Shown: one piece after another, positions 1 to 64,000 of the stretch | Layout of the letters: each line of letters begins with the position of its first letter | How positions within the stretch are numbered: the stretch's first letter is position 1 | Origin: an uncultured Microthrixaceae bacterium | GTDB taxonomy: Bacteria; Actinomycetota; Acidimicrobiia; Acidimicrobiales; Microtrichaceae | NCBI GenBank assembly: GCA_963714875.1 | Contig: CAVQQI010000010.1 | Location: 320,402 to 384,401, forward strand | Length of the DNA: 64,000 bases | Direction: 5' to 3' | Program-made: the position numbers and the translations under genes | Notes under the pieces: model-generated | What the model saw: only the letters and a program-made list of their open reading frames with translations | Told to the model about the DNA's origin: nothing | Database searches by the model: none

Positions 1-75
1 CACCGCATCGCGTTCGCCGCGATGGAGTCGGCCCGCACCGGTGCCGTGGTGGACCTGGCGCCGCTCGACCTGTAG
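1..75 (+). CDS. 3' end of an upstream gene (partial, ...AFAAMESARTGAVVDLAPLDL*)
   Basis: In-frame codons with high GC3 ending at a TAG at 73-75. No start lies within the window. Confidence 0.3.
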   Translation, partial: HRIAFAAMESARTGAVVDLAPLDL

Positions 76-117
76 CGCCGTCCGAGGCCCTGTGTGCACC
101 TTCCTGCGCGCAAATGC

Positions 118-130
118 GACGGATTCCGTC
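118..130. promoter_or_regulatory. 13-bp palindrome GACGGA-T-TCCGTC within a 20-nt motif (115-134) that recurs at 20258-20277; candidate operator
   Basis: Perfect 6-bp inverted repeat read directly in the sequence, with an identical 20-nt copy 20 kb away. Lies ~70 bp upstream of the GTG start proposed for the PPOX-like gene. Confidence 0.35.
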
Positions 131-198
131 ACCTGTGCGCGCAGCCTGGCCGTCTCGGCGCGCCCGGAGCGCTGTGCAGCATCGGTACCCTCGGCGCC

Positions 199-627
199 GT
201 GAGCGTGGAACGTCTCCTCGAGTCCCGCAACCTCTGGTTCGCGACGACACGTCCCGATGGGCGCCCACACCTGGCGCCGGTGTGGTTCGTCTACGTCGAT
301 GACCGGATCTGGATCGGCACCGGGCTGGGGTCGGTCCGTGTGCGCAACCTCCGCAGCAACCGGGCGGCGTCGGCGTGTCTCGAGGACGGCGACGCGCCGG
401 TCGCCGCAGAGGGGACGGTGCTGATCCACGAACTGGAACGCCCGGCGCCGGTCGTGGCGGCGTTCGGGGCCAAGTACCAGTGGGACATCACGGTCGACGT
501 CGATGCCGACGTGGGTGAGGTCGTCGTGTTGGAGCTGCGACCGCACCGATGGCTGTACGGGTCGGATCTCCCCACCGTGCCCTCGGACCCGCCACCGGCC
601 GGGGGCGCGAACGCCGCTCGCTGGTGA
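199..627 (+). CDS. pyridoxamine 5'-phosphate oxidase (PPOX)-family / F420-dependent-like split-barrel protein
   Basis: ORF 94..627. The motif RNLWFATTRPDGRPHLAPVWFVYVDDRIWIGT is typical of the PPOX/PNPOx-like fold. The first 35 codons from ATG 94 are Arg/Cys-rich and noncoding-like, so the GTG at 199 is preferred, giving 143 aa. Confidence 0.65.
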   Translation: MSVERLLESRNLWFATTRPDGRPHLAPVWFVYVDDRIWIGTGLGSVRVRNLRSNRAASACLEDGDAPVAAEGTVLIHELERPAPVVAAFGAKYQWDITVDVDADVGEVVVLELRPHRWLYGSDLPTVPSDPPPAGGANAARW

Positions 628-703
628 CACGACGGCGGGCCCGCGATCGCCGCCGAACGCCCGGACTCGGTACGATCCGTCGGCGACGCACGGGGGTAGG
701 GCG

Positions 704-2949: not shown

Positions 2950-5370
2950 TCAGGTGGTCTCGCGGCGGCGGCGGAATCCGGTGAGCAGGAACCCGCCCAC
3001 CAGGAACGCTCCGGCAGCAGCCAGCAGCCCCAGGATCGTCAGACCGGTGTAGGCCAACGTCTCGGGCAGCGAACGCGCGGTGCCGGCGGCTCCGCTTCCC
3101 GCCGGTGTGGCGCTGCCCTGGGTGCGATCCGCCACCTCGATGATCTGGCCGCTGGCGCTGCCCGAGTTGTCGTCGGGGTCCGTCTCGTCGGTCGACGTGG
3201 TCGCGCTGGCGGTGTTCACCACGGACGACCCGCCGCCTTCGGTGACGGTGCCCGAGATGACCAGCTCTGCGGTGGCACCCGCCGGCAGCGGCGTCGACCG
3301 CTGACAGGTGACCCGACGAGCCACGACGGTGCAGTCGAACGACGTGCCGCTCGCGGTGACGTCGTCGAACACCGCCGGCAGCTCATCGGTGACGGTCACG
3401 TCGCTGGCAGCGGACGGGCCGTCGTTGCGCACCTCGATGCGCCACAGGCCCTCCTGGCCGACCGTGAGCTGGCCCAGCAGCGTCTTGGTGACGCTGATGT
3501 TGGCGAGCGGCACCACCGTGACGGTGTCCTCGTCGCGGTCGTTGCTCGGATCCGCGTCCGCAACGGGGGTCGACACCTCGGCGACGTTCGTCGCGTCGGG
3601 TTCGGCCGCGGGCGTCACGTCGACCTGGACCGCCAGTGCCGGAAGAGCATCACCGACCGCGAGCGCGGCATCGGTGCTGCAGGCGATGATCCGTTGATCG
3701 GTATCGGTCGAACAGGTCCACCCGTCACCCTCGGCGGAACGGAACTCGAGTCCGTCGGGCAGCGTGTCACTCACCGTGATCGGTCCCTCGGGCAGGTCGT
3801 TCGGACCGTTGTTGGTGACCGCCAGCGTGAACGACCCCGGTGCGGAGACCGAGAAGTCGCCCTCGTGGAACTTGTCGATCGCCAGGTCGACCAGTGGGTC
3901 GATGCGGACCCGGTCGTCGTCGGAGTTGTTCCCGGGGTCGTCGTCGAAGGTCGGTCCGCCCACCTGGGCGGTGTTGGCCAGAGTCGGGTCCTCGGCCCCG
4001 CGGTATGCGCCGGGGGCGACGTCGACGGTGACGGTGATCTCTGACGACTCGTCGACGCCGAGCTCGCCCTCGTGGGTGCAGGTGACGTCGGTGCCGCCGT
4101 CGTCAGCGGCGCAGACCCAGCCGTTGCCGGAACCTTCCGCGAAGCTCAGCCCGTCGGGCAGGGAGTCGGTCACGGTGATGGGACCCGACGCCAGGTTCGG
4201 GCCGTCATTGGTCACCACGAACGTGTACTCGCCGGCGGCACCGACCTGGAAGGCGTCGCCCTCGTGGTCCTTGCTGATGCGTAGATCCGCGACTGGCCGC
4301 ACCGGCACCGTATCGGCGTCGGCGCGGTCGACGTCGTCGGTGATACCCGCCGCGCTGGCCGAGTTGGTGACGGTGTTGGTCGCCATTTCCGGGTCGGGCT
4401 GTGGCGTCGGCGCAGCGGCCGGCAGGACCCGCACCGACAGCTCGATGGGGGAGAGCTCGGCGCCGGCGGCGAGCAGCACCGCGTTCTCGTCCAGCCCGGA
4501 CCGGTCGTGCACGCAGCGCACCGTCCCGTTGGGCCCGTTGCCGCCGCCGGTGCGCAGCTCGCACTCCCAGCCGCGGCCGTCGGCATCGCGGTACTCGAGG
4601 CCCTCGGGCAGGACGTCGGTCACGACCACACGGCCGTACTCGCCGGATGGCCCGTCGTTGCCGACCAGCAGACGGAACTGCTGGTCGCTGCCCACGGTCC
4701 ACGGCGCGCTGTCGGCGACGTGGGACTTGTCCAGCCGCAGCTGAGCGACTGGAACGACCGGGGTGTCCTCGGTGTCGCTGCGCTCGCGGTCATCCACGAC
4801 GCCGCGAACGGTCGCGGTGTTGGACACCAGGTTCGCCGCCCCGGGGCGGGGGTCGATCACCGCTGCGGGGTCGACGGCCACCTGCACGGTGACCATGCCG
4901 AGGGACTCCCCGACACCCACGGGGTCAGGGTCGGCATCTGCTCCGATCCACGTGCAGTCGAAACGGCCGCGGTCCCCGTCGCCGAAGCCGGTCCCGGCGG
5001 TCACGTCGCAGTCCCAACCCGGCGCATCGACCGAGACCAGGCGCAGGTGCGCGGCGATCCCGTCGGACAGCTCCACCGGGCCGGTCTCCACCGAGGGTCC
5101 GGTGTTGGACACCACCACGTAGTAGCGGGCGTCGTCCTGTCCGGCGCGGAAGGTGGCGTCGCCGTCCGACTTCGAGATGGTCAACCTGGCGACGGGATCC
5201 GCCGACGAGGACTTGTCGCTCGAGTCGTTGGCCGGATTCGGGTCGTTGGGATGGGTCACCTTCGCCACGTTGGTGACGGTCGCCCGGCCCGGTGTGGCGG
5301 GATCGATCGCCGCGGTGACGACGATGGCCGGGTACGTGCTCTGTGCAGGGCTGTCGGCCGCGGTGCGCAC
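2950..5370 (-). CDS. C-terminal part of a DUF11-repeat (conserved repeat domain) cell-surface protein with LAXTG sortase signal
   Basis: Repeated TVTNxGP...GPITVTDxLPxGL modules. C-terminus reads LPETLAYTG, then a hydrophobic helix, then RRRRETT (class-E sortase LAXTG-type anchor). It has no signal peptide and opens mid-repeat, so it continues ORF 5256..11312 in another frame. Confidence 0.85.
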   Translation of the reverse strand: MRTAADSPAQSTYPAIVVTAAIDPATPGRATVTNVAKVTHPNDPNPANDSSDKSSSADPVARLTISKSDGDATFRAGQDDARYYVVVSNTGPSVETGPVELSDGIAAHLRLVSVDAPGWDCDVTAGTGFGDGDRGRFDCTWIGADADPDPVGVGESLGMVTVQVAVDPAAVIDPRPGAANLVSNTATVRGVVDDRERSDTEDTPVVPVAQLRLDKSHVADSAPWTVGSDQQFRLLVGNDGPSGEYGRVVVTDVLPEGLEYRDADGRGWECELRTGGGNGPNGTVRCVHDRSGLDENAVLLAAGAELSPIELSVRVLPAAAPTPQPDPEMATNTVTNSASAAGITDDVDRADADTVPVRPVADLRISKDHEGDAFQVGAAGEYTFVVTNDGPNLASGPITVTDSLPDGLSFAEGSGNGWVCAADDGGTDVTCTHEGELGVDESSEITVTVDVAPGAYRGAEDPTLANTAQVGGPTFDDDPGNNSDDDRVRIDPLVDLAIDKFHEGDFSVSAPGSFTLAVTNNGPNDLPEGPITVSDTLPDGLEFRSAEGDGWTCSTDTDQRIIACSTDAALAVGDALPALAVQVDVTPAAEPDATNVAEVSTPVADADPSNDRDEDTVTVVPLANISVTKTLLGQLTVGQEGLWRIEVRNDGPSAASDVTVTDELPAVFDDVTASGTSFDCTVVARRVTCQRSTPLPAGATAELVISGTVTEGGGSSVVNTASATTSTDETDPDDNSGSASGQIIEVADRTQGSATPAGSGAAGTARSLPETLAYTGLTILGLLAAAGAFLVGGFLLTGFRRRRETT

Positions 5371-8300
5371 GCAGCTGACCCGACCGCTGCCAGAGGTGCG
5401 ACGGCACGCAGGCCGGCTGGGACCGAGTCGGTCACGACGATCGGCCCGGTGGCCGGGTCGGGGCCGGCGTTGCTGAGGTCCAGGTAGTAGTAGCCGGGCT
5501 GGCCGACGGTGAAGCCGGCGCTGTCGGGGGACCCGTCGTCGTCGGCCGAGGCGTCGGTCTTCAGGATCCGAAGATCGGCGCTGCGCAGCGTCGCAGCTGC
5601 GTCGTCACGGTCGCCGGCGAGGGCGGTGCCGCCGGCGTCGCCGCCGTCGACCCGGGCGTCGTTGACCTGGAGCACCTTGTCGCCATCCTCGTCGAGCAGA
5701 CCCGGTACCTCGGTCGCTGCGGGCAGCGGGGTGGCGGTGAAGCGCACCGTCACCGTCGAGCCCGGTGCCAGGTCGCACAGGTCGGTCCAGATGATCCGCT
5801 GCTGTGCGCCGCCGTCGACAGCGGTGGTCGACACGGGCGGGGTCAGCTGTCGCGGTTCGGTGCGGCACGCCGCGCCGGGTGCCGCGCTGATAGCGACCGA
5901 ACCGGTGTCGAAGCTCCAGTTGGTCGGCAGCGTGTCGGTCACATCGATGCCGTAGGCGGTGCCCTTGCCGGTGTTCGCCACCTCGAGGGTCCAGGCGAAG
6001 GGGCTGCCGACATCGGCATCAGCGACCTCTGTCCCGGCCCCGGTGAGCTTCTGGATCGACAGCTTCGGCAGGTACGTCGTCACGGTCGCATCGGCCTCAG
6101 GGCCCTCGTACTCCTTGAAGTCGTCGCCGTCGTGGGTCGGATCTCCCCAGAAGGTGGGGATCGCCGCGGTGTTGACCAAGGTGCCGCCGTCGTTCAGGGT
6201 GTCGGCAGCAGCGGCGTCGACGCGCTGCGCATACGTCAGCGTGCAGCTCGCCCCGGCGGGCAGGCCGTCGGTGCCGGCGAACAACGCCGGCCAGGTCACC
6301 ACACGCTCGTCGCGGTCGACCGTCGCGGCGTCGGAACCGATGCAGGAGCCACCGATGGAGTCCGGCGCGGACAACCCGGCCGGGTAGCTGTCGGTGGTGG
6401 TGATGTCGTACGCGGGGTGTGTCCCCGAGTTGGTGATCGTGACCGTGTAGGCCAGCCGCTGGCCTGCTTCGACGACGCGGTCGTCGTCGTCCAGGTCCTT
6501 CGCGACGGCGAGCACCGGCTCGACGACGGTGAGCTTCGCGGTTGCAGTGCGGCTGGCATCGAAGCCCTTGCCGGAGAGCTCGTCGACGTCGTCGAAGCGG
6601 TCGACCAGGTTCCAGTGCAACGTGGCGGTGTTGGTGAGCACGTCGCCCGCGACGGCGGCGGAGCCGACGGTCGCGGTGTAGGTCAGTGCGATGGTGCAGT
6701 CCCCGCCAACGGCGCGGAGATCGCCGAGGAACCAGCCGACGCGCTGACCCGATGCGGCGATGGTGTGGGGCTCTGTGCGGTCCACCTCGCAGCTGGCGTC
6801 GAGCGGCGTCAGTTCGCCGTAGCCGCCGAAGCGCAGGTTGGCGGGCAGGATGTCGATCACCGTCGCGTCGGGCACGGTGACGCCCTCGGGCACGGTGACG
6901 CGGATCGAGTAGCTCGCCTGGGTGCCGGGCAGGCGGGTGCCGGGGTCGACCGATTTGGTGATGGCCGGGGGTGCCACCTTGACGGTGTCCTTGGTGGATG
7001 CCGAGTAGCTGGTGCGCTCCCCCTTCACGTCGCCCGTGATGGACGAGCCCGTGACGGTGGCGGTGTTGATCAGCTCCGCCTCCGCGACCGCCGGGGCATC
7101 GACGCTGGCCGAGTAGGTGAGTGCGATGCGCTCGGAGGGCTGCAGGCCGATCCCGTCGGGCCGTGTCGCAGGATCTTCCAGGAGCTTCCGCAGATCCCAC
7201 CGCACGAGTGTGGCGTCGGTCGCGGAGGGGGACGTCCCCTCGCTGACGGTGGCGGTGCCGGCCAGCGCCCCGGTGGGTGTGACCCGCGAGAGGCCCGCGG
7301 GCACGCAATCGGTCACGACCACGTCGTGCAACGGCGGTCGCCCGGCGGTGTTCGCGACGGTCACGGTGTAGTCGACACGGTTGGTGCCGACGACGGTCGT
7401 GGTGGGCGTGTGGGACTTGGTGATCGACGGTTCGGGCTCGACCACCCTGGTGGTCGACCGCGACCTGCGGCTGCGGTCGGTCGACGTGGCGGTGTCACTG
7501 AAGCGCCAGGACAGCCGGGCGGTGTTGGTCAGGGCCGTTCCGTGACGGTTGGCCGACACGTCGGCGACGACGCCGACGTAGGTGATCGTGACGACCTGGT
7601 CCTCGCCCGAGGCGTTGTCGAAGGTGGCGGGCAGATCCAGGGTCCATCCCCGTCCGTCCTTGCGGTCCGACAAGGTGAAGCCCTTGGCGTCGACACCGCC
7701 CGGGAGCTCGAGTCGGGCGGACCCGGCGGCGTAGGAGAGGCCGGCAGGCAGCGTGTCCGCCACCGATCCCTTGTACAGCGTCGTGCCGGCAGCGATGGTG
7801 GCGCGCACCGTGTAGCGGACCTCCTCGCCGATGGTCGCCTGGCCGGTCGGGCCCGTGGTCGGCAGATTGTTGCTCGCCTCGACGATCGAGGTCACCCGGG
7901 TCTTCGCGACCTGGGCGTCGGGCAGTCGCACGAGTGCATCGTCGATCGCCGTGGGAGCGTTCGGGGCCACCGTCGGGTCGATGTTGGACTCGGGGAGGTA
8001 CTCGCCGGTCCCTGTCAGGTCCAGGTACGACCGCACTCCGGCGGTGTCGAGGTGCGACGACCCCGCCGCGGCGGTGTCGCGCATCCGTGCGGTGTAGCTC
8101 AGCTGCAGGTCGTAGCCGGCAGGAATCCGATCGACGATGACCGCCATGCGGGACGGATCGGTGGTGCAGTCGACCTTCAGCGCGGCGATCGGCGCGTCGG
8201 CGAGTGGGAGAGCTCCCGGTCGCAGCACCAGTGCCGAGGACACCTCGGGATAGCCGGCCTCGGGCTGCATGTCGGCGCAGCTGATCTCCGGCGGCAGGTC

Positions 8301-11086
8301 GTCCCAGATCTGCACGTCGAACGCGTCGGACGCCTGGACCTGCCCGTCGGCCCGCGTGATCCGCAGACCTGTGCGGAGGCGGTTCGCGGTCTGCGGCTCG
8401 GCGAAGTCGACCGTGCTGCTGGTGCGTCGCATCTCGTCCAGGTCGAGCAGCGGTCGGACGAGCGTGCGGGGGGTCTGGGTGGTGCGGGGACGCGTGAGCG
8501 CGACGTCATCGGACGGGTCGAACGGGTCGCGCCCGTTGTCGCGGAGCTGGACGCCGGTGTTGGCGACGTCCACCCGGTAGGTGACGAGGTCGCCCTGGAT
8601 AGCGGTGTGCGCATCGCGGCCCGCGGCGGGGTTCGTGCGCGGGTAGCCCTTCAGCGTGTCCTTGCCGCGTGTGATGTCCACCACGCCCTTGGTGAGCGAC
8701 AGCACCGGCTCGGCGACCTGGTACGGACTGAGCGCCCGGGGGCTCACCGTCGAGGCGCCTGCGGTATTGGCGATGGTGACCTTGAGCAGGTTCTGGTAGA
8801 GGTCGGCGTCGCTGTTGGCCCGGGGGTCGTTGGTGACGCGAGCACCCAGCACGACGTGGAAACGACCGCCCTCGGCGGGGGTGTAGCGGGGCTGGGTGCC
8901 GATCGGTGTGCCGTAGCTCCAGATGACGGCGTTGCCGTAGGACGGGACGACCTCGGGGGTGCCGAACTGGCCCGGCGTGTTGTCCGCGGCCTCGACCGCG
9001 CCGACGAAGGACGAGTTCGCAGGCAGGAAGTCGGTGATGACGACGTCGCGCATGCGGATGCCCGAGGGCAGGTCCACCGCCAGGTCGAAGCACACCAGGT
9101 CGCCGGGAGCGAAGCGGGGGCCGTCGGTGCCGGCGGCATCGTCGGGGTCGACCCATCCGGTGGCGCACTGTTCGCGGCCGATCTGCTGCGCCGCAGCGGC
9201 GGCGCCGCTCAGGGTCTGCTTCGCGACCGAGTACCAGCGCGAGCTCAGCGAGGCGCCCGAGACGTCGCCGACCTCGATCGGGGCGAGGCCGTCATCGCCG
9301 TTCACCAACGAGGTGGTGCCGGACAGGCTGGCCCGGTTCCGCAAGGTGTCGAACACCAGCACGGGCTGAGCGGTGGCGCGGTAGGTCTCGAGCGTCACGG
9401 AGTCGAAGCTCAGCTGCACGTCGCTGTTCACGCCGATGGTCGCGGGCAGCGTCCACTGCAGGGTCTGCACGCCGTCGGGTCCGTCGGAGATCTCCGGCTC
9501 GATCGGGGTGCGGGCGCCATCGACCGACACCGAGGAGGATGCGGGGCGGAACGCCAACCCGTCGGGCAGCTCGTCGGTCACGACGACCTTCGCCGCGTCG
9601 CGGTACTCGCCGGTCCGGATCGACAGGTTCCAAGCGGTCACGCCGCCGTACTCCACCCCGTTGCGACAACGGCCGGAGCCGTTGCCGTTGGCGACCGAGT
9701 TGCAGGCGGACTTCTGGATGGCCAGGTCCTCGATCACCACGGTCTCGGTGGCGCGGTCCCAGGTCTGATCGGGCGAGACGCCCGCGGGAACGCGACCGGT
9801 GTAGGCGCCCGCGGCCGAGACACCGTTGGTGGCGCTGCGCTCCGTGCCGCGCTCGGTCGTCGGGGCGCCGGTGTTGTTCGCCAGGTTCGCGACCTGTCCG
9901 CATGAGTCCGCACGGCGGCCACAGATCGGATCGGGCGCACTCGACACGGCCTCGACGGGAGCACCGGGCGCTGCGTCGGGAGTCGGAGCTTCGGCCGGTG
10001 TCTCGGGTTCGGCCGGGGTCTCGCGCGCTGTGGGCACCTCGGGCCAGAGCGCGTTCTCCCGCTCCGGGACCGCGGCGAGGTAGGTGATCTCTCGCGACGC
10101 ACCAGGGGCCAGGTCGCCGATCGTCCAACGCACGTGGGTGTACACGCTGCGGGGCAGTGGGCCTGCGCCGTCGGGATCGACGTCGACGGTCTCGACCCGA
10201 TCGGGGGCGATGCAGCCCTCCCCGGCATCCAACTGCCGCGCCTCGTCCAGGCGTGGAGCGCCGGGGTATTCCAGACCGCCGGGCGTGCTCGGGGTGTCCG
10301 GCGTGTTGTCGACGGTGCCGCAGCCCAGGAACTCCAGCTCTGCCGGCAACCAGTCCTCGACCGACACGGCGTTCGTCGGGGCCACCAGGTTGTTCTCGAC
10401 CCGCACCGTGTACACGGTGGGGCGGTGCGCGCCACGCAGCAGCTCGTTCTCGCTGCTGGGTTCGGATTTGGTCACGACCAACGGCACGATCGTGGTCGAC
10501 CCCGCAGCGGACGCCCGGTCCGTGTAGGAGTCCTTGCCGGGGACGGCGGTTCCGTCCAGGGCGAACTTGGTGATGAAACGGGGGTTGGTGTTGGCGAACG
10601 CCTCAGCGGTGCTGCCGACCTCGGCGCCGACGAACAGGGCCGAGTCGTCCTTGCCCGAGCTGTTGTGCGAGATGCGGTAGCCCACCGATGTCGACGAGCC
10701 GGGCTGGGCGTCGCTGATGTTGCTCCAGATCAGCGTGGTGGCGCCGGGGCCGGGTTGATCGGCGATGATGCGCGTCGGTGCGATGTCGGCCGAGCCGGCC
10801 ACATAGGTCGCTCCGGCGGGGACGACATCGCGGAAGCTCACGTTGAAGTAGCGCTGCAGCCCGGCATCGTCGGTCGACCAGGTGTTGTGCGCGGTCAGCT
10901 CGATCGAGGTCTCGTCGCCGTAGAGCGTGGATGCCGGCAAGGACTTGGTCAATGCCAGCGTGTCCTCGGGCAACGGCGCATCGGCCGACGCTGAGGCATA
11001 CGGCGGCAGCGCTGCTGCGCCAGTGGCGATCAGGGTCACCGCGGCGAGCAGGCGCAACGCAGGACTCGAGCGATGGTTGACCCGCA
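5256..11086 (-). CDS. N-terminal part of the giant DUF11-repeat surface adhesin (signal peptide plus >20 repeat modules)
   Basis: 2018-aa ORF. Signal peptide RLLAAVTLIATGAAALPPYASA follows a candidate GTG at 11086. Many DUF11-like repeats. Overlaps 2950..5370 at 5256-5370 in a different frame, which indicates a frameshift within one ~2,800-aa gene. Confidence 0.8.
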
Positions 11087-12900
11087 CCCGCAGGTCGTTG
11101 ACCGAGCGCGGCGCCACCGGCTCACGGCCGGGATCGGCCGCGGCGGGGATCCAGGCGGCTGCCCAGATGCCCATGAGGGTGTGCAGCACCTCGGGGTCCT
11201 CGTCGTCGAACGCGATGCCGAGGCGGTGGGTGCCATCGGCCAGCGCCAACGAGGACCGCACCGTGGCACGGACGCGAAGCGGGGCGGAACGGTCGATGGG
11301 CCGCAGCAGCACCGAGGTGCTCGAGCCGACCTCTGCGGGTTACGCGACGCGCACGCCCATGCCGAGCGGACCGACGTCCAGCACCTCGAGCTCGTTGCCG
11401 CCCATCTGCACCTGCAGCTGAGATCCGACACGCGCCGAGCCTCGGCGCAGACGCTGGGGGATGATCACGCCGATCGCCCGCAGCAGCGGGACCGACACCA
11501 GCAGTGCGCCCGCGAGCAGCGCCATCTCGACGTCGCGCGGAGGGTCGGCCAACGGCCAGCCCAGCACCGACGACAGGGCGCGCGTCGCCAGGGCGACCTG
11601 CACTGCGACCGTGGCGACGAACGCGATGCCCAACGATCGACCGGCACCGGTCATGGGCCGTCCCGTCACAGCTGTGGCGAGCGAGGCGACCGAGGCGTCG
11701 ATCTCCTCGAACGCGCCGCGCACGGTGGCGGCGGGTCCCAGGCGACGGTCGGACAGCTCCCAGCGGATCAGGCCAGCGGCGCCGTGCAGTGCCACGCCCG
11801 CGATCAGCACCTGCCAGACCTCGACGCTGAACGGCAGCTCGCCGCTCAGCAGTGAGGCCACCAGCACCGCGAGCACGCCCAGCGCGACGGTCCCGCGCAG
11901 CGTGTCCATCGTCCGAGCCAGCGCCGCGGAGCGCATCCCTCGGGGGAGGTTGCGGCGCAGCAGGGCGCCGGGGCCGGCGGCGGCGGCTCGCAGCCGGTCA
12001 GCAGCGGCGGCCACCGGCTCGACCATGCGACTCGACTCGTGCCCGTTCAGCACCGCCAGCGACGTCGGGCTCCACGCACCGCGCCAGCCCTGGGTGATCA
12101 GCTGGTCGCCCAGCTGCGCGATCGACCCGGCGTCCGGGTCGAGCTGGGTGAAGGCCGCGCGACGGACCACCGACGCACCGACCGACCACGCGGCGATCCC
12201 CCGTGCCGAGTCGGCGGGTCCCACCAGGTCGTTGTCGGTCGAGTCCACGACGTTCGCGTTCGGGAGCACTGGTGGACATCGACTGCACCCAGGCGACCCG
12301 GCTGTCACGGAACTCCAGCTCGGTCAGGGAGAACATCTGCTCGTTCGCGACCGAGTCCGAGGTCAGGAGTCCGATCAGCTCTGCATCCGTGGCGGCGAGC
12401 GCAGCCGCCACGAGGACGGGGAGACCGCCCGAGGCGTCCGACGGCCCGATCTGCGCGGTCACCCGAGCAGCACCGAGGTCCTCGGCCAACACGTCGAGGT
12501 CGTGTCCGACGGGGCCGACCAGCAACAGCTCGGTCCGGCGGTCCACCCACGATGCGCTGAGCAGTGCCATGCGCACACGTGCCGGCTCCTGGTCGGTCAC
12601 CAACACAGCGACTGCCCGGCCGGCTCCGCCGCCGCCGTTCGCGACGCGGCCTGGCTCACGCACGCCGGTCGTCACGTCGGCCCCGGTCGCGTCATCGGCA
12701 TCGTTCGCACCAGCCGGCGCGGTGCGCCGGAGGAACATGGCCAGTCGGATCAGGGCGAAGAGCTCAGCTGCCAGGAACGGCCAGAACAGCCAGGGGTTCA
12801 CTCCCTCGGCAGTGCGCGTGACGCGCAGCACCGCCCAGGCGACAGCAACGATCAGCAGCGAGGCGCCGAGCAGCGCCCGAGGATTCTTCGGAGGGTTCAT
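11036..12900 (-). pseudogene. cellulose-synthase-like GT2 membrane protein with possible C-terminal PilZ-like segment, split over three reading frames
   Basis: Frame A (12900->11998): N-terminal TM helices plus a GT2-like core (AVAVLVTDQEP...LLLVGPVG...DSVANEQ). Frame B (12308->11340): TM helices plus QRLRRGSARVGSQLQVQMGGNELEVLDVGPLGMGV, with RxxxR...DxGxxG suggesting PilZ. Frame C continues LALADGTHRLGIAFDDEDPEV. Catalytic motifs look degenerate and boundaries are uncertain. Confidence 0.5.
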
Positions 12901-45337: not shown

Positions 45338-46321
45338 ATGATGGACGCTGTGGAGGACTTCGTCGTCGCCCGGAATCCGGATGGGGATTCGGGGTTGCCG
45401 TATCTGGTTCGGCTGCCGTTGGGCGCTCACGGTGTGGTGCTGAAGGTGCGCGACACGTGGCCGCGCACCGCGAAGGTGTACTGCCACCCGTCGCAGGACT
45501 GGGACGACTCGGTCGAGGTGGTGGAGCGGGTGCCGGTGCGCTCGTGTGTGCGTCGCGGCGCGGCGATCGACCTGGTGCTGGACCGAGGCCGGGAGAACCG
45601 GTCGCAGTTCGTCTTCACCCGGGCTCGTGGTCGCGAGGTGATCTTCTGGCAGAGCGCTCGTACTGCGAAGCAGGCCCGGCCCGCAGTGAGCACGCCGACA
45701 CGACGCGCGTCCGGGTTGGTGCTCGACATCCTGGTCGACAGCCACGAGCGGTATCCGTGGAAGTTCAGCGCGCAGCAGGCAACGACCCGTCGGCAGGCGT
45801 TGCCGGCAGGTGACTACGCGGTCGAGCATCGACGGTCGGCGTCGTCGCCGCGGTCGAGCGCAAGAGCTTGGCGGACCTGTCCTCGACGTTGACGACCGGC
45901 AAGCTGCGCTACCTGCTCGCAGCGCTCGACGAACTGCCTCGTGCCGCGCTGGTGGTCGAGGACCGCTACTCGGCGGTGTTCAAGTCGACGTTCGTCGTCA
46001 CCGGGTGTGCTGGTCGAAGGTCTGGCCGAGGCGCAGGTCCGGTTCCCTGCGGTGCCGATCGTGTTCTGCGAGACGCGACCGTTGGCACAGGAGTGGACCT
46101 ATCGGTTCCTCGGCGCCGCGCTGGCGCATCACGCCGAGGACGCGCCGGCCGCCGAGCGTGCCGCGGAACTCCCGGCGGCTGGTCCGTTGGCGCCAGCGGA
46201 GCCGACCGCTGCGGAGATCCGTGCCTGGGCGAACGCCAACGGCCACCCGGTCTCCGCGAAGGGGCGCATCCCGGCGTCGGTGCGAGCGGCGTTCGACGCG
46301 TCGCGACGACGGCCGGGCTAG
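45338..46321 (+). CDS. ERCC4/XPF-like nuclease-fold protein fused to a C-terminal Lsr2-like DNA-binding domain (frame-interrupted)
   Basis: GDYAV...ERKSLADLSSTLTTGKLRYLLAALDELPRAALVVED gives an ERK-type nuclease motif. C-terminus PTAAEIRAWANANGHPVSAKGRIPASVRAAFDA resembles the Lsr2 C-terminal domain. Split over frames 45200, 45868 and 45941. Confidence 0.5.
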
Positions 46322-47166
46322 CGGCCGAGCTGGTCGAGGAGAAGGCGACCTGCGGTGGAGATCTCGACGGGCTCGAGGCGGCCTTGGACGGCGCTTGCGG
46401 CATTCGCCAGACGTGCGGTGCGCAGCGCGTCGTCGATGAACCAGCGCTCGACCCCTGCAGCGACGAGCGAGGCGAGATCGAACGGCGCGGACTGGAGCGC
46501 TCGGACTGACTCGTCGGAGCGAATCAGGTCGCCGGTGAGGCGGACGAGGTCGAGTGCGTCGCTCTCGCGCTTCGACAGCGACGGTCCCTTCCGGTCCGCG
46601 ATGGCGTGCAGCTTGCACGCGACCAGCGCAGGCACTGTCGCGACGGACAGTGTGCCCGTCTCGAGGACGGCGCCGTCGGGCGACACCGCATCGATCTCTA
46701 CGGGAGTCGCGCTGTCCAACGCCCATCGGTGGCCGACGACGAACAGCCGGTCGAGATCGGCATCAGGCAGGTCATCGCTGTGGTCAGGTAGCGGCCAGGT
46801 CGCCATGACGTCGACCTTCACGCCGTCGACCACGATTCGGTTCTGATCTGCTGCCTCTCCGTCCCCCAAGTACTGCAGCGCCAGGTCCCGAGGGCCTTCA
46901 CCTTCGGCAACCGTGTCAACGTCGTTCGTCGCTCGGTGCACGGTGGCGAGCCGGACGGTGACTGCCAGGCCGCCGACCAGCGCTGCCGGGTGAAATCGTG
47001 GCGTCTCGAACAGCGTCGTGGCCGTGCGGATCAGTCGGCTGATCGCGCCGTCGCCGGAGTCGATCAGTGCGACGTCACCAGACACGAACGAACCCCTTCG
47101 GCGGCTCCCACTGATCGAGCACTTCGCGCCCACGGGACGTGGCTGCGAGACCGAGCGCGCAGGCAA
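46318..47166 (-). CDS. AbiEii/AbiGii-type nucleotidyltransferase toxin (DUF1814-like)
   Basis: N-terminal ALVGGLAVTVRLATVHRATNDVDTV matches the GGtA...R.T.D(I/V)D NTase signature. Start uncertain because of an overlap with the upstream ORF. Confidence 0.55.
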   Translation of the reverse strand: MPARSVSQPRPVGAKCSISGSRRRGSFVSGDVALIDSGDGAISRLIRTATTLFETPRFHPAALVGGLAVTVRLATVHRATNDVDTVAEGEGPRDLALQYLGDGEAADQNRIVVDGVKVDVMATWPLPDHSDDLPDADLDRLFVVGHRWALDSATPVEIDAVSPDGAVLETGTLSVATVPALVACKLHAIADRKGPSLSKRESDALDLVRLTGDLIRSDESVRALQSAPFDLASLVAAGVERWFIDDALRTARLANAASAVQGRLEPVEISTAGRLLLDQLGR

Positions 47167-48136
47167 CCGGATGTGCGAGCGGCGCCCCGGCCCTCCTGGC
47201 GGGATAGCGGTCGTGGGTCAGCAGCCCCACCGGGTCGACCGCGAGCTCGATCGATGGCCGGGACTCGTCGGACGCCACCTCGCCGCCGACGATCTTGGCG
47301 CGACGGAGCGACTCGTCGTCGGGCACGAAGAGCAGCGTCGGGTAGTCGCCGGTCAGCACCAGCGGCGCACCCCAGGCCACGGCGCCACGTTCGCCAGCGA
47401 TCGCCCAACCCGCAGCGCTCAGGTCGTCGATGTTCGCTCCCAGACGCGGGTCCTTCAGGTCAGCGATCGACAACCGAGCCGACGTACTCCCAGCGGCCCA
47501 GACATCGGCGACGGCCCAGAACAGCTCAGGGGTCAGCGGACGGTATCTGCCCCGACCCACGCGTTCAGCGAGCTGCGCGTCACCCAGAGCCGACATCGCC
47601 CGGCTCACCGAACTGACGTCGAGCCCGGCGAGACGAGCGATCGCCGTGAGGGTCATCGGATCGTCGGGTCGCGTGAGGAGTCCCATGGCAGCGCTCAGGC
47701 CGGAGCGGCCGGCGATCGCCGTCGTGCTCGACCGGTCTGGGTCGAATCGGCTGGCAGGGGCGATGTCGGTATCGATGAAGAGGCCGTCAGCGACGAGCCG
47801 AAGGTGACCTCGGCGGTCGAGCCAACCGATGCCAGCGTCGTTGAGGATCGGCCGCAGCGACGCAGGTACCTGGTCCGCCACGACCATGTGGAACGTCCCG
47901 AGCTTGCGGTGGCCGACCTTGAATTTGGGCATGGCACCGGACAAGACCGACGCCGCGGTGACCTCGATCTCGGTCGGCGGGCGGGAGGGGCGCTCGACGA
48001 TCACGACGTCCGGTTGGTCAGGCTGGCGAACCGTGAGCCCGAGCGAGGTCGCTGCGTCCATGAACGTCTGGACTGCGTCTCGTTGGAGTTCAGCCTGCGA
48101 GGTGCGACTTCTCATGCGTCTTGAATTATAACGCAA
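47075..48136 (-). CDS. AbiEi-like antitoxin/transcriptional regulator (winged HTH) with N-terminal extension
   Basis: Central wHTH MTLTAIARLAGLDVSSVSRAMSALGDAQLAERVGRGRYR followed by an AbiEi-like C-terminal domain. Lies immediately upstream of the AbiEii-like gene and overlaps it. Confidence 0.45.
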   Translation of the reverse strand: MRYNSRRMRSRTSQAELQRDAVQTFMDAATSLGLTVRQPDQPDVVIVERPSRPPTEIEVTAASVLSGAMPKFKVGHRKLGTFHMVVADQVPASLRPILNDAGIGWLDRRGHLRLVADGLFIDTDIAPASRFDPDRSSTTAIAGRSGLSAAMGLLTRPDDPMTLTAIARLAGLDVSSVSRAMSALGDAQLAERVGRGRYRPLTPELFWAVADVWAAGSTSARLSIADLKDPRLGANIDDLSAAGWAIAGERGAVAWGAPLVLTGDYPTLLFVPDDESLRRAKIVGGEVASDESRPSIELAVDPVGLLTHDRYPARRAGAPLAHPVACALGLAATSRGREVLDQWEPPKGFVRVW

Positions 48137-58451: not shown

Positions 58452-58970
58452 CCCGCCACCCCGTGGTCCGGCGCGATGTACGCCCGCGCCGGATCACCAG
58501 CGGCCGCTGCTCGCCAAGCCCAACGCGAAGGGCCACCGTCTGTTGCGTCATCCTCGATCATGGCCCGCCCGGTGCTTCAGCGGAGGCCGGTCCCGCCGGG
58601 TGAGGCCGCGGAAATCTGGCGCCGCGCGCAGGAAAGCGATTCCGCTGGGGGATCGCGGGTGCCCTCAAGGTGCCGGCAGGGGCTCCCCGCGACCGTCGAC
58701 GTTCGCCGGGAGCCTTGACCGGCCGGTCTCGCTCGGCAGCGCGATTCGGCGGTCCTCAGCTGGTGATGCGCGATGGCGACGCGGGGTTGACCGCGCTCGA
58801 GTGAAGCCCACAGAGATGCACCGGGGTGACCGGGACTCTGACCACGCGCTCGACCGGTGTCTCGACCGCACCGATTTCTCCGCTCGGCGTGTCGTTGACT
58901 TGCGCTTAGGAGGGTGTGGAACGAGCGAGCGTCAGCACGCAGGGTGCGGCCGTCGGTGGGGGCTGCTCGT

Positions 58971-61614
58971 GTTGAGCGTGCACCGGTTGGGGGCCGGGTC
59001 GGAGGGCTACTACCTGGACCAGGTCGTGGCCGGGGTGGAGGACTACTACGCCGGCGCGGGCGAGGCGCCGGGTGAGTGGCTCGCCTCGTCCGCGCTGCTG
59101 GGTCTCGAGGGCCGGGTTGATCCGGATGATCTGCGGGCGGTGCTGCTCGGTGTGGATCCCGGTTCGGGCGACGGGTTGCATCACGGGTCGGGTCGGTCAG
59201 TGCCGGGTTGGGATCTGACGTTCCGTGCGCCGAAGTCCGTCAGCGTCCTGTGGGGCCTCGCTGACCCGGAGATCGCGGACGTGGTCGTGGCGGCGCATGA
59301 GGCGGCGATGCAGGTCGGGCTCCGCTACGTCGAGGAGTGGGCGGGGTTCACCCGCACCGGCCGAGGCGGCGCAACCCGGGTCCGCGGCGGACGGGCTTGA
59401 TCGCGGCGGGGTTCCGGCATCGCACCTCGCGTGACGGCGACCCGCACCTGCACACTCATGTGCTGGTGGCGAACTCGGTGCGCACGCCGGACGGGCGGTG
59501 GCGGACGTTGGATGGCCGCGGGTTGCTGGTGCACATGAAGACCGCCGGCTACGTCTACGACGCGCAGCTGCGCCACGAGCTGACCGAACGCCTCGGCGTC
59601 GAGTGGGGCCCGGTCGTCAACGGGCTCGCCGATATCGAGGGCATCGACGCCGAGGTGCGCGAGCTGTTCTCGAAACGACGCAGCGCGATCGAGGACCGCA
59701 TGGCCGAATGGGGGCTCACCTCCGCGAGAGCAGCGGAGGTCTCCGCGCTCGACACCCGCCAGGCCAAGACCGGCCGGGTGGAGCACACAGACGAGCTGCG
59801 CGACCGGTGGCGCACCGAGGCCGCCGAGATCGGCTGGACCCAACGGGATCTGCTCGGAGCGTGCCCGGCCGTGTTGACCGGTCAACACCACTCGACCGCG
59901 GCCGCGTTCACCGGTCAACGCCACTCGACTGCTGGCGCGTTCGACCGGTCAACGCCACCGAGGGGCTGGCGGTCACGGGTGACCAGGCGCTGATCCGTCC
60001 GGTCAACACGGGGCTGAGGTGCCGTGGTCAGGGGTGACCAGCCGTCTGACCACCTCGTCGACGCTGCGTTCGAGGAGATGTCGTCACCGGTCGGGTTGAC
60101 GGCGCACGCGTCGAGCTTCGACCGCCGCCACGTCATCCAGCATCTCGTCGACCACCTCCCACCAGGACCGCCCGCCGAATGGTTCGAAGCGACCGCGGAT
60201 CGGTATCTCGAACGTGTCGAGGTCGTCGCGCTCGGATCGGATCCGGTGAAGGGCGAGTGCTACTCGACCGTCGATCTGCTCGCGCTCGAACGACGCCTCG
60301 CCGACCAGGTCGCTGACCCGCGGTTGGGGGAGCGGTCACCGGAGGTGATGCCCTCGATCGTCTGGTCGGTGTTCGAGGAACGACCGTCACTGTCGGGCGA
60401 GCAACGGGACCTGATCGGCGACGTGTGCCGCAGCACCGACGCGGTGAGCGTGGTCGTCGCCGGGCCGGGGACCGGCAAGACGTTCTGTCTCGACGCGATC
60501 CGCGACACGTTCCAACGCAGCGGGTACACGACGATCGGCTGCGCCCTGTCCGCCTCCGCGGCGCATGAGCTCGAGCAGGGCTCGGGGATCGAGTCGATGA
60601 CGATCGCCCGGCTCCGAGGTCAGCTCGATACAGGCGAGCGGAAGCTCCGGGCCCGCAGCGTGCTCGTGGTCGACGAAGCGGGCATGGTCGGCACCCGAGC
60701 CCTCGCGCCGCTGCTCGACCACGCAGCGACCGCGGGAGCGAAGGTGATCCTCGTCGGTGACCCGAAGCAGCTACCGGAGATCGAAGCCGGCGGCTTCCTC
60801 CGCCACCTCGCCCAACACCACGAGGTGTCACTCGCTCACCGAGAACCGCCGTCAACGCGTCGGCTGGGAACGCGACACGATCAGCGACCTCGCCCACGGC
60901 CGAGTCGACGCAGCGCTCGAACGTATGACCGCGAACGACGGTGTCGTGGTCGGACACAACGCCGACCTGGTCCGACAACGCATGACCGACGACTGGTTCC
61001 GTCCACCGCAGCAGCGGGGCGTCTGCGGTGATGATGGCGAGCCGTAACAGCGACGTCGATGACCTCAACCGGCGAGCCCATCAGCTCATGGCCGACCACG
61101 GCCACCTCCACGGCGAGGCGCTCCACCTCGATGGCCGGCCGTTCCAGATCGGCGACCGCGTGGTGTGCCTGCGCAACGACCGGCGACTCGGCGTGCGCAA
61201 CGGCACCGTCGGCGACATCACCCACATCGACCACCAGCACCGCACCCTCACCATCGACACCCCCGACGGGACACGGCGGCGTACCGGGCGAGTACCTCGA
61301 CGATCGGGCATGTCCGTCATGGCTACGCCGTCACCATCCACAAAGCCCAAGGCATCACGTGTGACCACGCGCTGCTGCTCGGCAGCGACGAGCTCTACCG
61401 AGAGTCCGGCTACGTCGGACTCTCCCGCGGCCGCGAATCGAACCGGATCTACGCCGTCTCCACAGCACCCGACCCCGAAGCCCACATCCCCAAGCACCTC
61501 CGCACCGAACGTGAACCGCTCGACGTGCTCACCCACGCACTCGAACAAACACGAGCCCAGAAGCTCGGCATCGACCACGACGCCGAGCCCGATCTCGGGG
61601 CAGGTCTGTAAGGC
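58971..61614 (+). CDS. MobF/TrwC-TraA-type conjugative relaxase with C-terminal RecD-like helicase (multiple frame interruptions)
   Basis: N-terminus VLSVHRLGAGSEGYYLDQV...WDLTFRAPKSVSVLW. HxH motif DPHLHTHVLVANS. Helicase Walker A VVVAGPGTGKTF, then VLVVDEAGMV...ILVGDPKQLP. C-terminus ...GYAVTIHKAQGITCDHALLL. Pieces lie in frames 58240, 59337, 60024, 60757, 61028 and 61165. Confidence 0.7.
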
Positions 61615-61636
61615 GGTGCCGACCGCCCTCGGATCG

Positions 61637-62790
61637 TCAGCCGGGCCGTGGACGGTCGCCGTGCCACACGCGGTCGCCGATGACATCGGCGGATCGGGCA
61701 TCTGACTCCTGGACCCAGTGGGCGTAGATGTTCGTCGTCGTCGACGGGTTGCGGTGGCCGACGCGGCCGGAGACGCTGCGCAGTGGTACGCCGGCGTCGA
61801 GCAGCTGGGTGACCTGGAGGTGGCGCAGCCCGTGAAGGTGGATCCAGCTCGGCAGGTCCATCCGGTCGCGCAATCGGCTGAACGCCCTCGTCGCGCTCGA
61901 CGGGTGCAGCGGCTGGAGGCCGCCCGGTTCAGGTGCGAGCACGTACGCGTCGTCGCTCAGCTCGATGTCGCACAGTGCGCACGCTTTGGCGTGACGTTCC
62001 AGGTGGTCGAGCAACCAGTCGAGCGCGAACGACGACAGCGTGACCGTTCGGTGCTGGTGGGTCTTGGTGTCTTTCTCGTAGACGACGTTCGTCTCACCGA
62101 TCGCCGCCTCGATCCGAACCGTGCCTGCGTCTCCGTCGACGTGCCGCCAACGGAGCGCGCACAGCTCGCCGCGGCGCGCTCCTGTGTCGGCAGCGAGCAC
62201 CATCAGTGTCGCGAGCGTCGGGTTCACCTTCGACGCTTCGTCGATCATCGCCCGTGCCATGTTGATCGGCACCGGCTTCGGGTTCGAGGTGTGCTGTCGG
62301 GGCGGACGCGCGTCTCGACCGACGTTGACCGCGACCCAGCCCCAGCGCTTCGCCTGGTCGAGCACCCGGCACAACAGGATGTGACAGCCCCGCACGGTCG
62401 AGCGCGAGTAGCCCGGCCTCGACCAGCGCGCCGTAGAAGCGGTCGAGGTGCTCGGCGGTCAGGTGCGACAGCCGACGGGACCCGAGCGCCGGGAGCACGT
62501 GGCACTCGGCCGAGGTGCGGTAGCACGCGCAGCGTCGTCGGCTCGAGCCCCTCGAGCTCGGCCTGGCGCAGTCCTGCCTCGACGGCGTGCGCGACCGTGC
62601 GCTGTCCGACCGACACCTGGCCACGTGCGGACTTCGTGATCAGCTCGGCCAACGCGATGTCGGCCTCGCGGGAGGTGCCGTGGAAGGTCACCGACTTCTG
62701 TTGACGCTTGCGCGTCAACGGGTCCTCACCTGCGTCGACGCGCAGCTCCCAGGTCCCCGGAACTCGTCCCTTGCGCTTGTTGCCCTTCAT
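61637..62790 (-). CDS. tyrosine-type site-specific integrase (phage-integrase family), two frame interruptions
   Basis: N-terminus MKGNKRKGRVPGTWELRVDAG... The catalytic domain holds ...ARRGELCALRWRHVD...HGLRHLQVTQLL...IYAHW with the R..HxxR..Y catalytic residues. Adjacent to tRNA-Thr. Confidence 0.8.
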
Positions 62791-62935
62791 CCCGTCTCCG
62801 TTCTCGCACCGATTCGTGAGACGTCGGTGAGATTCCGTGAGACAGGGTGATGGTGAGGTCTCGACCGGTGTCTAGACCGGAGCCTGACCATCGCCGGAAA
62901 CCCTTGTGGCTACTGGGTTCCCGAGTGGGTCTGAA

Positions 62936-62980
62936 CAGAGCCCGAGAGGAGAATCGAACTCCTGACCTGCTGTTTACAAG
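62936..62980. repeat. second copy of the 45-bp att direct repeat (within the tRNA-Thr 3' half)
   Basis: Exact identity to 45086-45130. Confidence 0.8.
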
Positions 62981-63011
62981 ACAGCTGCTCTGCCAACTGA
63001 GCTACTCGGGC
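62939..63011 (-). tRNA. tRNA-Thr: tRNA-Thr (anticodon UGU)
   Basis: Manual fold. 7-bp acceptor stem GCCCGAG/CTCGGGC. D-arm GCTC-AGTTGGCA-GAGC. Anticodon stem-loop GCTGT-CTTGTAA-ACAGC. T-arm AGGAG-TTCGATT-CTCCT. 73 nt. CCA not encoded. Confidence 0.85.
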
Positions 63012-63197
63012 GGGAGTGGCGGAGTTCGTGGAAGACAACTGCCGCTGGTCCGTGGTGGCTGATGGTATCGGGGCTGGGTCCCGCTGATCGACAGCCGTTC
63101 CGGGCGGGGTCTGTGGGCAAGCGTGGTGGCCGCCTGCCCACGTATGGTGGCCGACGTGAGCAGGCCAGCCGGGGATGCGATGGGCGCCCGGCCCTGG

Positions 63198-64000
63198 GGT
63201 GACCGAGGCAGCGACGGGTCCGCCCCGCGACCCTGCCCTGACGCTGGTGGCCACGGGCCTCGGACTGTTCATGGTGTTCCTGGACGCGACGATCGTGAAC
63301 GTCGCGCTCCCGGCCATCCAGTCCGACTTCGACGTGGGCGAGAGCGGCGTGCAGTGGGTGGTGGCGGCCTACAGCCTCACCATGGGCATGTTCATGATGA
63401 CCTCGGCGTCGTTGTCGGACTCCCATGGGCGTCGCAGAGCGTTCGTGGTCGGGATCGCGTTGTTCTCCGTCGCGTCCCTCGCCTGCGGGCTCGCACCGTC
63501 GATCGCCGTGCTCAACATCTCCCGGGCCGTCCAGGGGGTCGGTGCCGCGGTGGTGAACGTGGCCTCACTCGCACTGGTCGGCGCCGCGTTTCCCGAACCC
63601 GCAGCGAAGGCCAAGGCGGTCGGGCTGTGGACCGGCATCGCCGGCATCGGCGTGGCGATCGGGCCGACAGCCGGTGGCTTCCTCACCGAGCAGTTCAGCT
63701 GGCGAGCGGTGTTCCTCGTCAACCCGGCGGTCGGCCTTGTCACGATCGTGCTGACCCTGGCGGTTGTGCGGGAGTCCGCGTCGCCCACGAAGCACAGCTT
63801 CGACATCATCGGCCAACTCCTGTTCATCGTCGGGATCGGTGCGGTCACGTTCGCCCTGGTCGAGGTTCCCGTGTTCGGCTTCGGGTCGCCGATCATCATC
63901 GGGTCCCTCGTGCTGTCGATCCTCGTGCTTGTTGCGTTCGTACGGTTGGAGCTCCGATCCGACGATCCGATGATGGACGTGCGGGTCTTCGCCGACAAGG
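63198..64000 (+). CDS. MFS transporter, DHA2/EmrB-like family (5' partial; runs off the window)
   Basis: GTG start, then ...LTLVATGLGLFMVFLDATIVNVALPAIQSDF...WVVAAYSLTMGMFMMTSASLSDSHGRRRAFVVG. This frame is not in the supplied ORF list because no stop falls inside the window. Confidence 0.8.

Follow-up and report, generated by a model that had tools for sequence, protein, structure and literature searches.

The window, the whole stretch of 64,000 nt that was analysed, carries eight genes whose reading frames are broken: a giant surface-protein gene, a kinase/flippase-like remnant, an MFS transporter gene, a membrane-protein gene, an NfeD-like gene, an ERCC4-Lsr2 fusion gene, and the relaxase and integrase genes of an integrative element. 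The breaks were mapped by frameshift-aware protein-to-DNA alignment against intact homologues, and by nucleotide alignments where homologue DNA existed. Altogether, about 27 frame-breaking lesions were placed in these eight genes, the N-terminus of a LuxR-family regulator lying outside this set. Interruptions were thus found at nearly all of the sites that an earlier sequence-only reading of this DNA had named as split genes.

The EmrB/QacA-type MFS transporter gene is present at full length on the minus strand (22840-24526) and contains three insertions, namely +1 at 24148, +1 at 23962 and +2 at 23516-23517, in agreement with the break predicted at 22.8-24.5 kb. Its repaired product shares 86.6% identity with the intact protein P0001. 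On the plus strand at 24645-25840 lies the gene of a conserved membrane protein of approximately 390 aa, to which no family was assigned. Two +1 insertions, at about 24738 and about 25105, were mapped in it, corresponding to the split reported at 24.6-25.8 kb, and the repaired protein is 74% identical to the intact P0242. Three genes are each precisely missing from L080 and L081, the closest relatives: that of the membrane protein, the MFS gene and the kinase remnant.

The kinase/flippase-like (LPG_synthase_TM) remnant occupies 18613-20394 on the minus strand. The break claimed at 18.8-20.2 kb turned out to comprise at least six frame changes between 18765 and 20013, together with a truncation: only residues of about 201-670 of an 850-aa homologue are left, and the gene is cut inside the LPG_synthase_TM domain. 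The segment is wholly absent from relative L081. Five of the six events scored are of the -1/+2 type, a spectrum which differs from that of the other genes (Fisher's exact P of about 0.02, hand calculation). The remnant matches neutrally decaying pseudogenes in full, being truncated, diverged and affected by deletion-type shifts. This gene is a genuine truncated relic, a product of ordinary decay.

A giant surface-protein gene of approximately 3,300 aa covers 2950-12900 on the minus strand. Its homologues P0243 (3458 aa) and P0244 (3408 aa) each span both the PilZ region and the adhesin, and its layout consists of a TM/PilZ-like N-terminus, DUF11 repeats (Pfam matches) and a C-terminal LAxTG sorting signal. 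As in these homologues, the PilZ region, a 2018-aa ORF and an 806-aa adhesin ORF are parts of one giant gene. The 2018-aa ORF, which had been listed among several long intact genes, is consequently a piece of this gene and has to be struck from that list. Its three lesions are a +1 insertion at about 12250, a TAA codon in frame at 11340-11342 and a frame change of net -1/+2 at about 5385. The last one, seen by alignment to the homologues, agrees with the adhesin break proposed at about 5.3 kb, and distant homologues carry an extra DUF11 unit at this point. The first two correspond to the breaks expected in a "GT2/PilZ" gene, but this label itself did not hold. At E <= 0.01 to 0.1, neither the window nor homologue P0244 matched a GT2 domain, and the PilZ match, which runs across the TAA stop codon, is only borderline (E = 3e-4, 21.3 bits versus a cutoff of 22.5; 21-22 bits overall). 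A BcsA-like GT2-PilZ synthase was therefore rejected, given that GT2 is lacking and that the corresponding part of the homologues forms the N-terminus of a 3,400-aa adhesin. The TAA at 11340-11342, a substitution-type change, may be a real nonsense mutation.

The integrative element of about 4 kb (58849-62879) is flanked by direct repeats of 20 nt (58849-58868 and 62860-62879) and adjoins tRNA-Thr (62938-63011). Its TrwC relaxase and helicase domains, together with the tyrosine recombinase, the repeats on either side and the tRNA target, are the features of elements of the MobF-relaxase/tyrosine-integrase kind. The MobF/TrwC relaxase-helicase gene (58969-61608, plus strand; domains TrwC, AAA_30, SH3_13 and UvrD_C_2) contains +2 at 59387-8 and +1 at 60828, 60999, 61281 and 61304, and further changes, not resolved singly, lie in a variable linker at 59890-60021. 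The "five or more breaks" ascribed to the relaxase were thus recovered as five insertions plus the linker changes. After repair, the protein is 92.1% identical to the intact P0121; a tblastn search against plasmids gave only relatives of 32-34% identity, too distant for mapping. The tyrosine integrase gene (61640-62790, minus strand; Phage_integrase domain) shows +1 at 62412 and 62525, which accounts for the two breaks noted in it.

The NfeD-like gene lies at 32709-33279 on the minus strand, upstream of an SPFH/Band 7 gene, and the break suspected at about 32.9 kb was confirmed by alignment as one +1 insertion at about 32880. It is colinear with the homologues P0360 and P0372 (184-188 aa), with 57% identity after repair, and gave no Pfam NfeD match. 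The ERCC4-Lsr2 fusion gene (45338-46318, plus strand) is colinear with an intact Rhodococcus plasmid protein at 58.5% identity, and the break assigned to 45.2-46.3 kb resolves into two frame changes, at about 45839 (+2 or -1) and about 45997 (+1); a scan of viral contigs with this protein matched its Lsr2 tail only. As for the LuxR-family (GerE) regulator (33468-35802, plus strand), the N-terminal break proposed at about 33.6 kb at a C6 run is a candidate only: the region shows no more than a lipoprotein-like signal peptide in another frame, beside C6 runs at 33582-33587 and 33592-33597. No NTPase domain was found upstream in any frame, and the N-terminus had no match among plasmids. GC3 was too noisy over 120 nt, and comparison with the second LuxR gene of the window was uninformative.

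The lesions are not evenly spread. Four accessory or mobile segments, together 15% of the window, hold 23 of the 27: the kinase remnant, the stretch with the MFS and membrane-protein genes, ERCC4-Lsr2, and the 4-kb relaxase/integrase element beside tRNA-Thr. This amounts to one lesion per 424 nt in the segments versus one per 13.6 kb elsewhere, an approximately 30-fold difference. Counted in 2-kb bins, the lesions have a variance/mean ratio of 2.38 (P = 0.0002), indicating that the positions are non-random, and stretches of 12-13 kb between clusters are free of lesions. Frame changes seen at 15.9 kb separate adjacent genes, and those at 40.4-43.8 kb are ordinary gene boundaries; neither were counted as breaks.

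With the kinase remnant set aside, the spectrum consists of 13 unambiguous +1 insertions, 2 two-base insertions and 2 ambiguous events. It includes no clear deletion, and no indel of 3n or larger size was seen outside the variable relaxase linker. Four inserted bases are unlike either neighbour (T in G_C at 60828, G in C_T at 61281, T in A_C at 61304 and A in C_C at 62525), and some insertion pairs of the same direction lie only 1-25 nt apart. The isolated +1 events at about 12250 and about 32880 have the same signature as the clustered ones. Once repaired, all genes except the kinase remnant are full length and colinear with their intact homologues at 57-92% identity, and in-frame stops are left only in the variable relaxase linker.

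Homopolymer enrichment is the classic and best-known error mode of Nanopore sequencing. The sequence-only reading had stated that several breaks sit at G/C homopolymers and had favoured ordinary long-read homopolymer-length errors scattered over the contig. Its statement did not survive: a run of at least 4 lies within 12 nt of only 2 of the 17 well-placed breaks, versus 18% under the null, and none of the 90 runs of at least 5 in the window coincides with any of the 17. The count of homopolymer versus non-homopolymer breaks which it had proposed, carried out here, therefore puts proximity to runs of at least 4 at the chance level. It is true that such assemblies typically carry small indels that break conserved genes (PMC9262707), that two MFS events fit G3-to-G4 or C3-to-C4 runs, and that the candidate LuxR site stands beside two C6 runs; but with the long runs left unstruck and the events clustered rather than scattered, this explanation is very improbable. 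It should be pointed out that breaks away from homopolymers are atypical of the best-known Nanopore error mode, and that this counts against the error reading. The homopolymer count would have given a misleading answer, while selection tests, that is, branch dN/dS and changes at conserved columns relative to indel number, are informative without reads.

dN/dS was obtained from three-taxon branch counts for the MFS and relaxase genes. On the window's branch the relaxase value was 0.18, versus 0.15 and 0.13 for the intact homologues, and the MFS value was also 0.18, versus 0.23 and 0.26; the value for an intact neighbour in the window was 0.26-0.34. Moreover, at 441 columns that are conserved among distant homologues, of which 163 belong to the relaxase, 238 to the MFS protein and 40 to the membrane protein, the window shows no private deviation. 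On these comparisons, no signal of relaxed selection is apparent in the dN/dS of the MFS or relaxase genes, nor at the conserved columns, including those of the membrane protein. If the decay were real, about 12 indel events without any conserved-column change would imply at least about 0.8 indels per neutral substitution, as calculated from those counts. Measured by mutation accumulation, the ratio of indels to substitutions is 33/245 = 0.13 for B. cenocepacia (bioRxiv 10.1101/011841) and 207/856 = 0.24 for M. smegmatis (PMC4938668). With a ratio of 0.24, about 9 neutral amino-acid changes would be expected in the MFS protein and about 27 in the relaxase, and the chance that no such change strikes a conserved column is approximately 0.005 × 0.003.

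These values bear on the view that most or all breaks are real, reflecting recent inactivation of dispensable accessory or mobile genes in an insertion-biased, indel-rich host, with the genes heading for deletion as in sister lineages. Much of the placement evidence fits this view. The lesion-rich 15% of the window is entirely accessory DNA, and clustering in dispensable genes is predicted by real decay, too. The precise absence of the same genes from L080 and L081 is as expected if they are being lost in the clade, and there is one substitution-type TAA stop, in the giant gene, and one truly truncated gene inside a lesion-rich segment. All three points count against the error reading. Real pseudogene indels also need no homopolymers: those of Burkholderia are not tied to long homopolymers, and comprise 396 deletions versus 300 insertions with a long size tail (PMC6054270). 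We had taken the insertion bias as evidence of error (P = 0.006 versus the Burkholderia pseudogene data), but this argument was withdrawn, as M. smegmatis, an actinobacterium without MutS/L, naturally shows a 2:1 insertion bias consisting mostly of 1-nt insertions (PMC4938668). With such a natural bias in an actinobacterium, insertion bias alone does not discriminate error from decay.

Nevertheless, the likeness to known decay is only partial. Like the decaying pseudogenes described by Danneels et al. (2018, PMC6054270), the dispensable genes here contain several indels each and are missing from sister lineages. Unlike them, the MFS and relaxase genes show no excess of amino-acid changes, these two and the membrane-protein gene no change at the conserved columns, and the seven genes other than the kinase remnant no clear deletions, no 3n or longer indels outside the relaxase linker, no truncation and, with the exception of the giant-gene TAA, no nonsense codons. 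The mostly 1-nt insertions in a high-G+C actinobacterium resemble the M. smegmatis spectrum; however, 79% of the small indels of that species lie in simple repeats (PMC4938668), whereas simple repeats hold at most 3-4 of the 17 well-placed breaks here, and the indel ratio needed, at least 0.8, is also above the 0.24 of M. smegmatis. The closely spaced same-direction insertion pairs, and a window-branch dN/dS that is not raised, likewise speak against decay. Real inactivation of most or all of these genes is hence unlikely, although it deserves serious weight. The earlier caution that clustered breaks could be real decay is right for the truncated kinase-flippase remnant and possibly for the TAA, while the other genes lean to error.

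Two further explanations would accept the insertions as genuine. If programmed ribosomal frameshifting or transcriptional slippage were at work, the genes would be functional as they stand, in line with purifying selection up to the present. However, recoding would be expected to use a single conserved slippery site, whereas eight unrelated genes here carry two to ten shifts each, inspection by eye revealed no common slippery motif around the sites, and close intact homologues lack the extra bases. To our knowledge, no known system recodes at such density, and we give this explanation almost no credence. Only slightly less far-fetched is that the +1 insertions are real products of a targeted mutagenic silencing which riddles newly acquired or mobile DNA, without substitutions, in this Acidimicrobiia lineage. 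Such silencing of foreign genes would account for both the accessory-only placement and the indel-only spectrum.

We therefore prefer, with a probability of roughly 0.6, the reading that most breaks are insertion errors in the consensus, limited to accessory segments with poor support on a MAG-type contig. The earlier lean towards long-read error is supported because no relaxed selection and no conserved-column changes were seen, the genes are full length and colinear, and the lesions are insertions of 1-2 nt only; its homopolymer argument drops out. Under this reading, residual 1-2-nt insertion errors would have been left in the consensus of a long-read assembly. The accessory segments may be strain-variable or shared between populations, so that few or heterogeneous reads would be available there, while the core of the contig would be well covered and thus clean. 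Ordinary decay would be overlaid on these errors, in the kinase-flippase relic and perhaps in the TAA of the giant gene.

Long-read metagenome assemblies are known to contain frameshifts from small indels, and these depend on coverage (bioRxiv 10.1101/2021.08.23.457338; PMC9262707); frameshift-causing consensus indels are the problem behind the IDEEL test and proovframe (bioRxiv 10.1101/2021.08.23.457338; Sereika et al. 2022, PMC9262707). The present case resembles them in that 1-2-nt indels split conserved genes into adjacent ORFs, repair against homologues restores full length, and the sequence comes from one long contig of a MAG-type assembly. It differs in that the breaks lie off homopolymers, are nearly all insertions and are confined to short accessory segments.

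The finding is thus mainly a quality warning, the breaks looking like local assembly error rather than gene decay. Gene boundaries and pseudogene calls in the four segments and in the giant adhesin hinge on the choice between these explanations. Should the breaks be errors, the MFS exporter of the organism would be functional; the organism would likewise have the conserved membrane protein, an NfeD-like/SPFH pair and an ERCC4-Lsr2 protein, its relaxase/integrase element would be potentially mobile, and pseudogene counts for this MAG would be inflated. If they are real, they would still represent ordinary accessory-gene decay.

The close relatives of the window are all MAGs, and an acyltransferase scan of genome and metagenome collections returned none closer than 84% amino-acid identity. 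In a 15-billion-protein collection, the window's ORF fragments P0241 and P0381 occurred as singletons only, on one NCBI/ENA contig. At three of four relaxase sites, private substitutions lie within 5 nt of the insertions, an excess that is not significant (P of about 0.13, hand estimate). One idea for the origin of the insertions is a merged allele, in which polymorphic alleles are both kept by the consensus, as might be the case for GA[T]C at 61304 and TTC[G]ACC in the linker.

The gene map combined a codon-usage Viterbi frame map, a comparison of all stop-free segments with Pfam, and a purpose-written frameshift-aware protein-to-DNA aligner. Same-strand frame changes at 15.9 kb proved to be the DoxX/DinB gene boundary, and those at 40.4-43.8 kb the boundaries of the response regulator, kinase, H-NOX and S26 peptidase genes. 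With such ordinary boundaries removed, the remaining frame changes are real interruptions. The frame breaks listed by the sequence-only reading are confirmed with corrections, apart from the LuxR N-terminal break, which is putative. The window has a G+C content of 70% and its relatives are Acidimicrobiia, chiefly MAGs of Microthrixaceae and Ilumatobacteraceae; the best relative of the acyltransferase (25869-26984) shares 76% amino-acid identity among species-representative genomes and 84% among metagenome contigs.

The MFS gene (22840-24526, minus strand) has its Pfam MFS_1 domain distributed across three frames. Compared with two intact homologue genes (L163 and L160, encoding P0001 and P0002), it carries extra bases at 24148 (+1), 23962 (+1) and 23516-7 (+2), and the repaired product shares 86.6% identity with P0001 across 528 residues. 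Similarly, the membrane-protein gene (24645-25840), whose product is 74% identical to P0242, an intact homologue of 390 aa, has +1 changes at ~24738 and ~25105, and the NfeD-like gene, colinear with homologues P0360 and P0372, has one at ~32880. Nucleotide alignment of the relaxase gene (58969-61608) against the intact genes L161 and L162 placed a +2 at 59387-8 and +1 insertions at 60828, 60999, 61281 and 61304; the repaired protein shares 92.1% identity with its homologue P0121 across 849 residues. Its variable linker contains a 33-nt tandem repeat (59877-59971) in three copies, the third at 34-nt spacing, and is itself ambiguous to align; L161 has a single copy, and linker length varies across all homologues. 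The integrase gene has +1 insertions at 62412 and 62525 relative to L162. Together, MobF relaxase and tyrosine integrase are the only contents of a ~4-kb integrative element (58849-62879), which ends in 20-nt direct repeats (58849-58868 and 62860-62879) and adjoins tRNA-Thr (62938-63011). In the related element of L162, by contrast, two additional genes (569 and 73 aa) separate relaxase from integrase. The ERCC4-Lsr2 gene, whose relatives are on actinobacterial plasmids, is shifted at ~45839 and ~45997 relative to an intact Rhodococcus plasmid protein, and a complete ERCC4 domain was obtained solely from the repaired gene. On its 5' side, the codon-usage map alone gave an apparent frame change at ~44923 in a small ORF (44743-45007) with no homologue or Pfam match. 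The window's AbiEii gene (46321-47217) is intact, while its homologue on the JGI metagenome contig L085 (1557-2352) is split across two frames.

An important correction concerns the region first labelled GT2/PilZ, in which a GT2 domain was not detectable. A protein-representative search matched it to the first ~610 residues of intact 3,398-3,542-aa homologues (P0243-P0245, P0253), the rest of which is a DUF11 adhesin. Colinearity of the window with these homologues extends from ~12900 to 2950-3070, where an LAxTG sorting signal lies. The supposed 'PilZ gene', the 2018-aa gene previously called intact and an 806-aa ORF are therefore one giant gene of ~3,300 aa (2950-12900, minus strand) with three lesions. 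Its predicted product has a membrane/PilZ-like N-terminal part of ~610 aa, DUF11 repeats and the C-terminal LAxTG signal; joining of a possible c-di-GMP-sensing module to a surface adhesin would be an unusual combination. One lesion is a +1 at ~12250, another is a TAA in frame at 11340-11342, opposite a serine of P0244, and the third is a frame change at ~5385, where both distant homologues compared carry one more DUF11 unit. In a 15-billion-protein collection, two of the window's own ORF calls, the 2018-aa ORF (P0381) and a 309-aa fragment (P0241), were present solely as singleton clusters, both from a single 385,322-bp NCBI/ENA contig; the collections covered gave no independent copy of the sequence.

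With a combined length of 9.7 kb (15% of the window), four segments hold 23 of the ~27 lesions, giving one per 424 nt within them versus one per 13.6 kb elsewhere (dispersion P = 0.0002). All four are accessory DNA. The kinase-flippase remnant, the MFS gene and the membrane-protein gene (window-only segments 18613-20394, 22750-24500 and 24620-25870) are each separately missing from the closest metagenome relatives L080 and L081, which keep the short intergenic piece 24502-24617 between flanking genes. Such clustering in genes deleted by sister lineages is exactly what recent real inactivation predicts. The earlier argument that breaks sit at homopolymers fails: runs of at least 4 lie within 12 nt of 2 of the 17 well-placed breaks (18% by chance), and none of the 90 runs of at least 5 coincides with any of them. 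This context differs from textbook Nanopore error (PMC9262707), and Burkholderia pseudogene indels are likewise independent of long homopolymers (PMC6054270), and both points count against error. Without the kinase-flippase remnant, the spectrum consists of +1 insertions in 13 clear cases, +2 insertions in two and ambiguous events in two others, and neither clear deletions nor 3n or longer indels occur; four inserted bases differ from both neighbours, and insertion pairs are spaced 1-25 nt. Insertion bias was dropped as evidence for error, because M. smegmatis, an actinobacterium without MutS/L, naturally shows a 2:1 excess of mainly 1-nt insertions (PMC4938668).

Selection tests speak against inactivation. 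By three-taxon parsimony counts, branch dN/dS of the window lineage was 0.18 in the relaxase (intact homologues 0.15 and 0.13) and 0.18 in the MFS gene (0.23 and 0.26), compared with 0.26-0.34 for the intact neighbouring acyltransferase. No private window deviations were found at columns conserved in distant homologues of the relaxase (163), MFS (238) or membrane protein (40), and the window and P0121 have identical states at ten clade-specific relaxase columns. Measured indel/substitution counts were 33/245 for B. cenocepacia (10.1101/011841) and 207/856 for M. smegmatis (PMC4938668). At measured bacterial ratios, the three MFS and at least nine relaxase events predict ~9 and ~27 neutral amino-acid changes, and the chance that none would fall on a conserved column is ~0.005 and ~0.003, respectively. 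Conversely, by our calculation inactivation would need at least ~0.8 indels per substitution. Branch dN/dS, conserved columns, indel-to-substitution ratio and lesion spectrum all point the same way, and most of the breaks are best explained by local insertion errors in the consensus (probability roughly 0.6), recent inactivation being the main but considerably less probable alternative. Such errors would cluster where read support is poor or heterogeneous across strain-variable segments.

The kinase-flippase, however, is certainly a real truncated relic. What remains corresponds to just residues 201-670 of an 850-aa homologue, with six frame changes; it breaks off within the LPG_synthase_TM domain (residues 567-837), and the flanking genes leave the missing ends no space. 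Five of its six shifts are of the -1/+2 type, opposite to the spectrum of the other genes (Fisher P ~ 0.02, hand calculation). The TAA of the giant gene is possibly a real nonsense codon. Where the choice between assembly indels and decay had been left open, the relic and possibly this codon show that both are present in the window. Whichever reading is right, the phenomenon belongs to a familiar and ordinary type; it matters for annotation and calls for caution with this contig.

Directly 5' of the LuxR-family ORF, a lipoprotein-like signal peptide (MAVRASSISIALVAVVLLAASCG) was observed in frame +2 (33468-33600), ending at two C6 runs. This ORF lacks an NTPase domain, for which the divergent NfeD-like gene leaves no space. 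A weak LysR-type HTH match (E = 0.006) at 35806-36336 (minus strand) may mark a further gene fragment; a substrate-binding domain would not fit before the LuxR gene. The signalling cluster at 38536-43253 (minus strand), comprising an H-NOX (HNOB) protein, a histidine kinase, an OmpR-type response regulator and a hybrid PAS kinase with Hpt, is intact.
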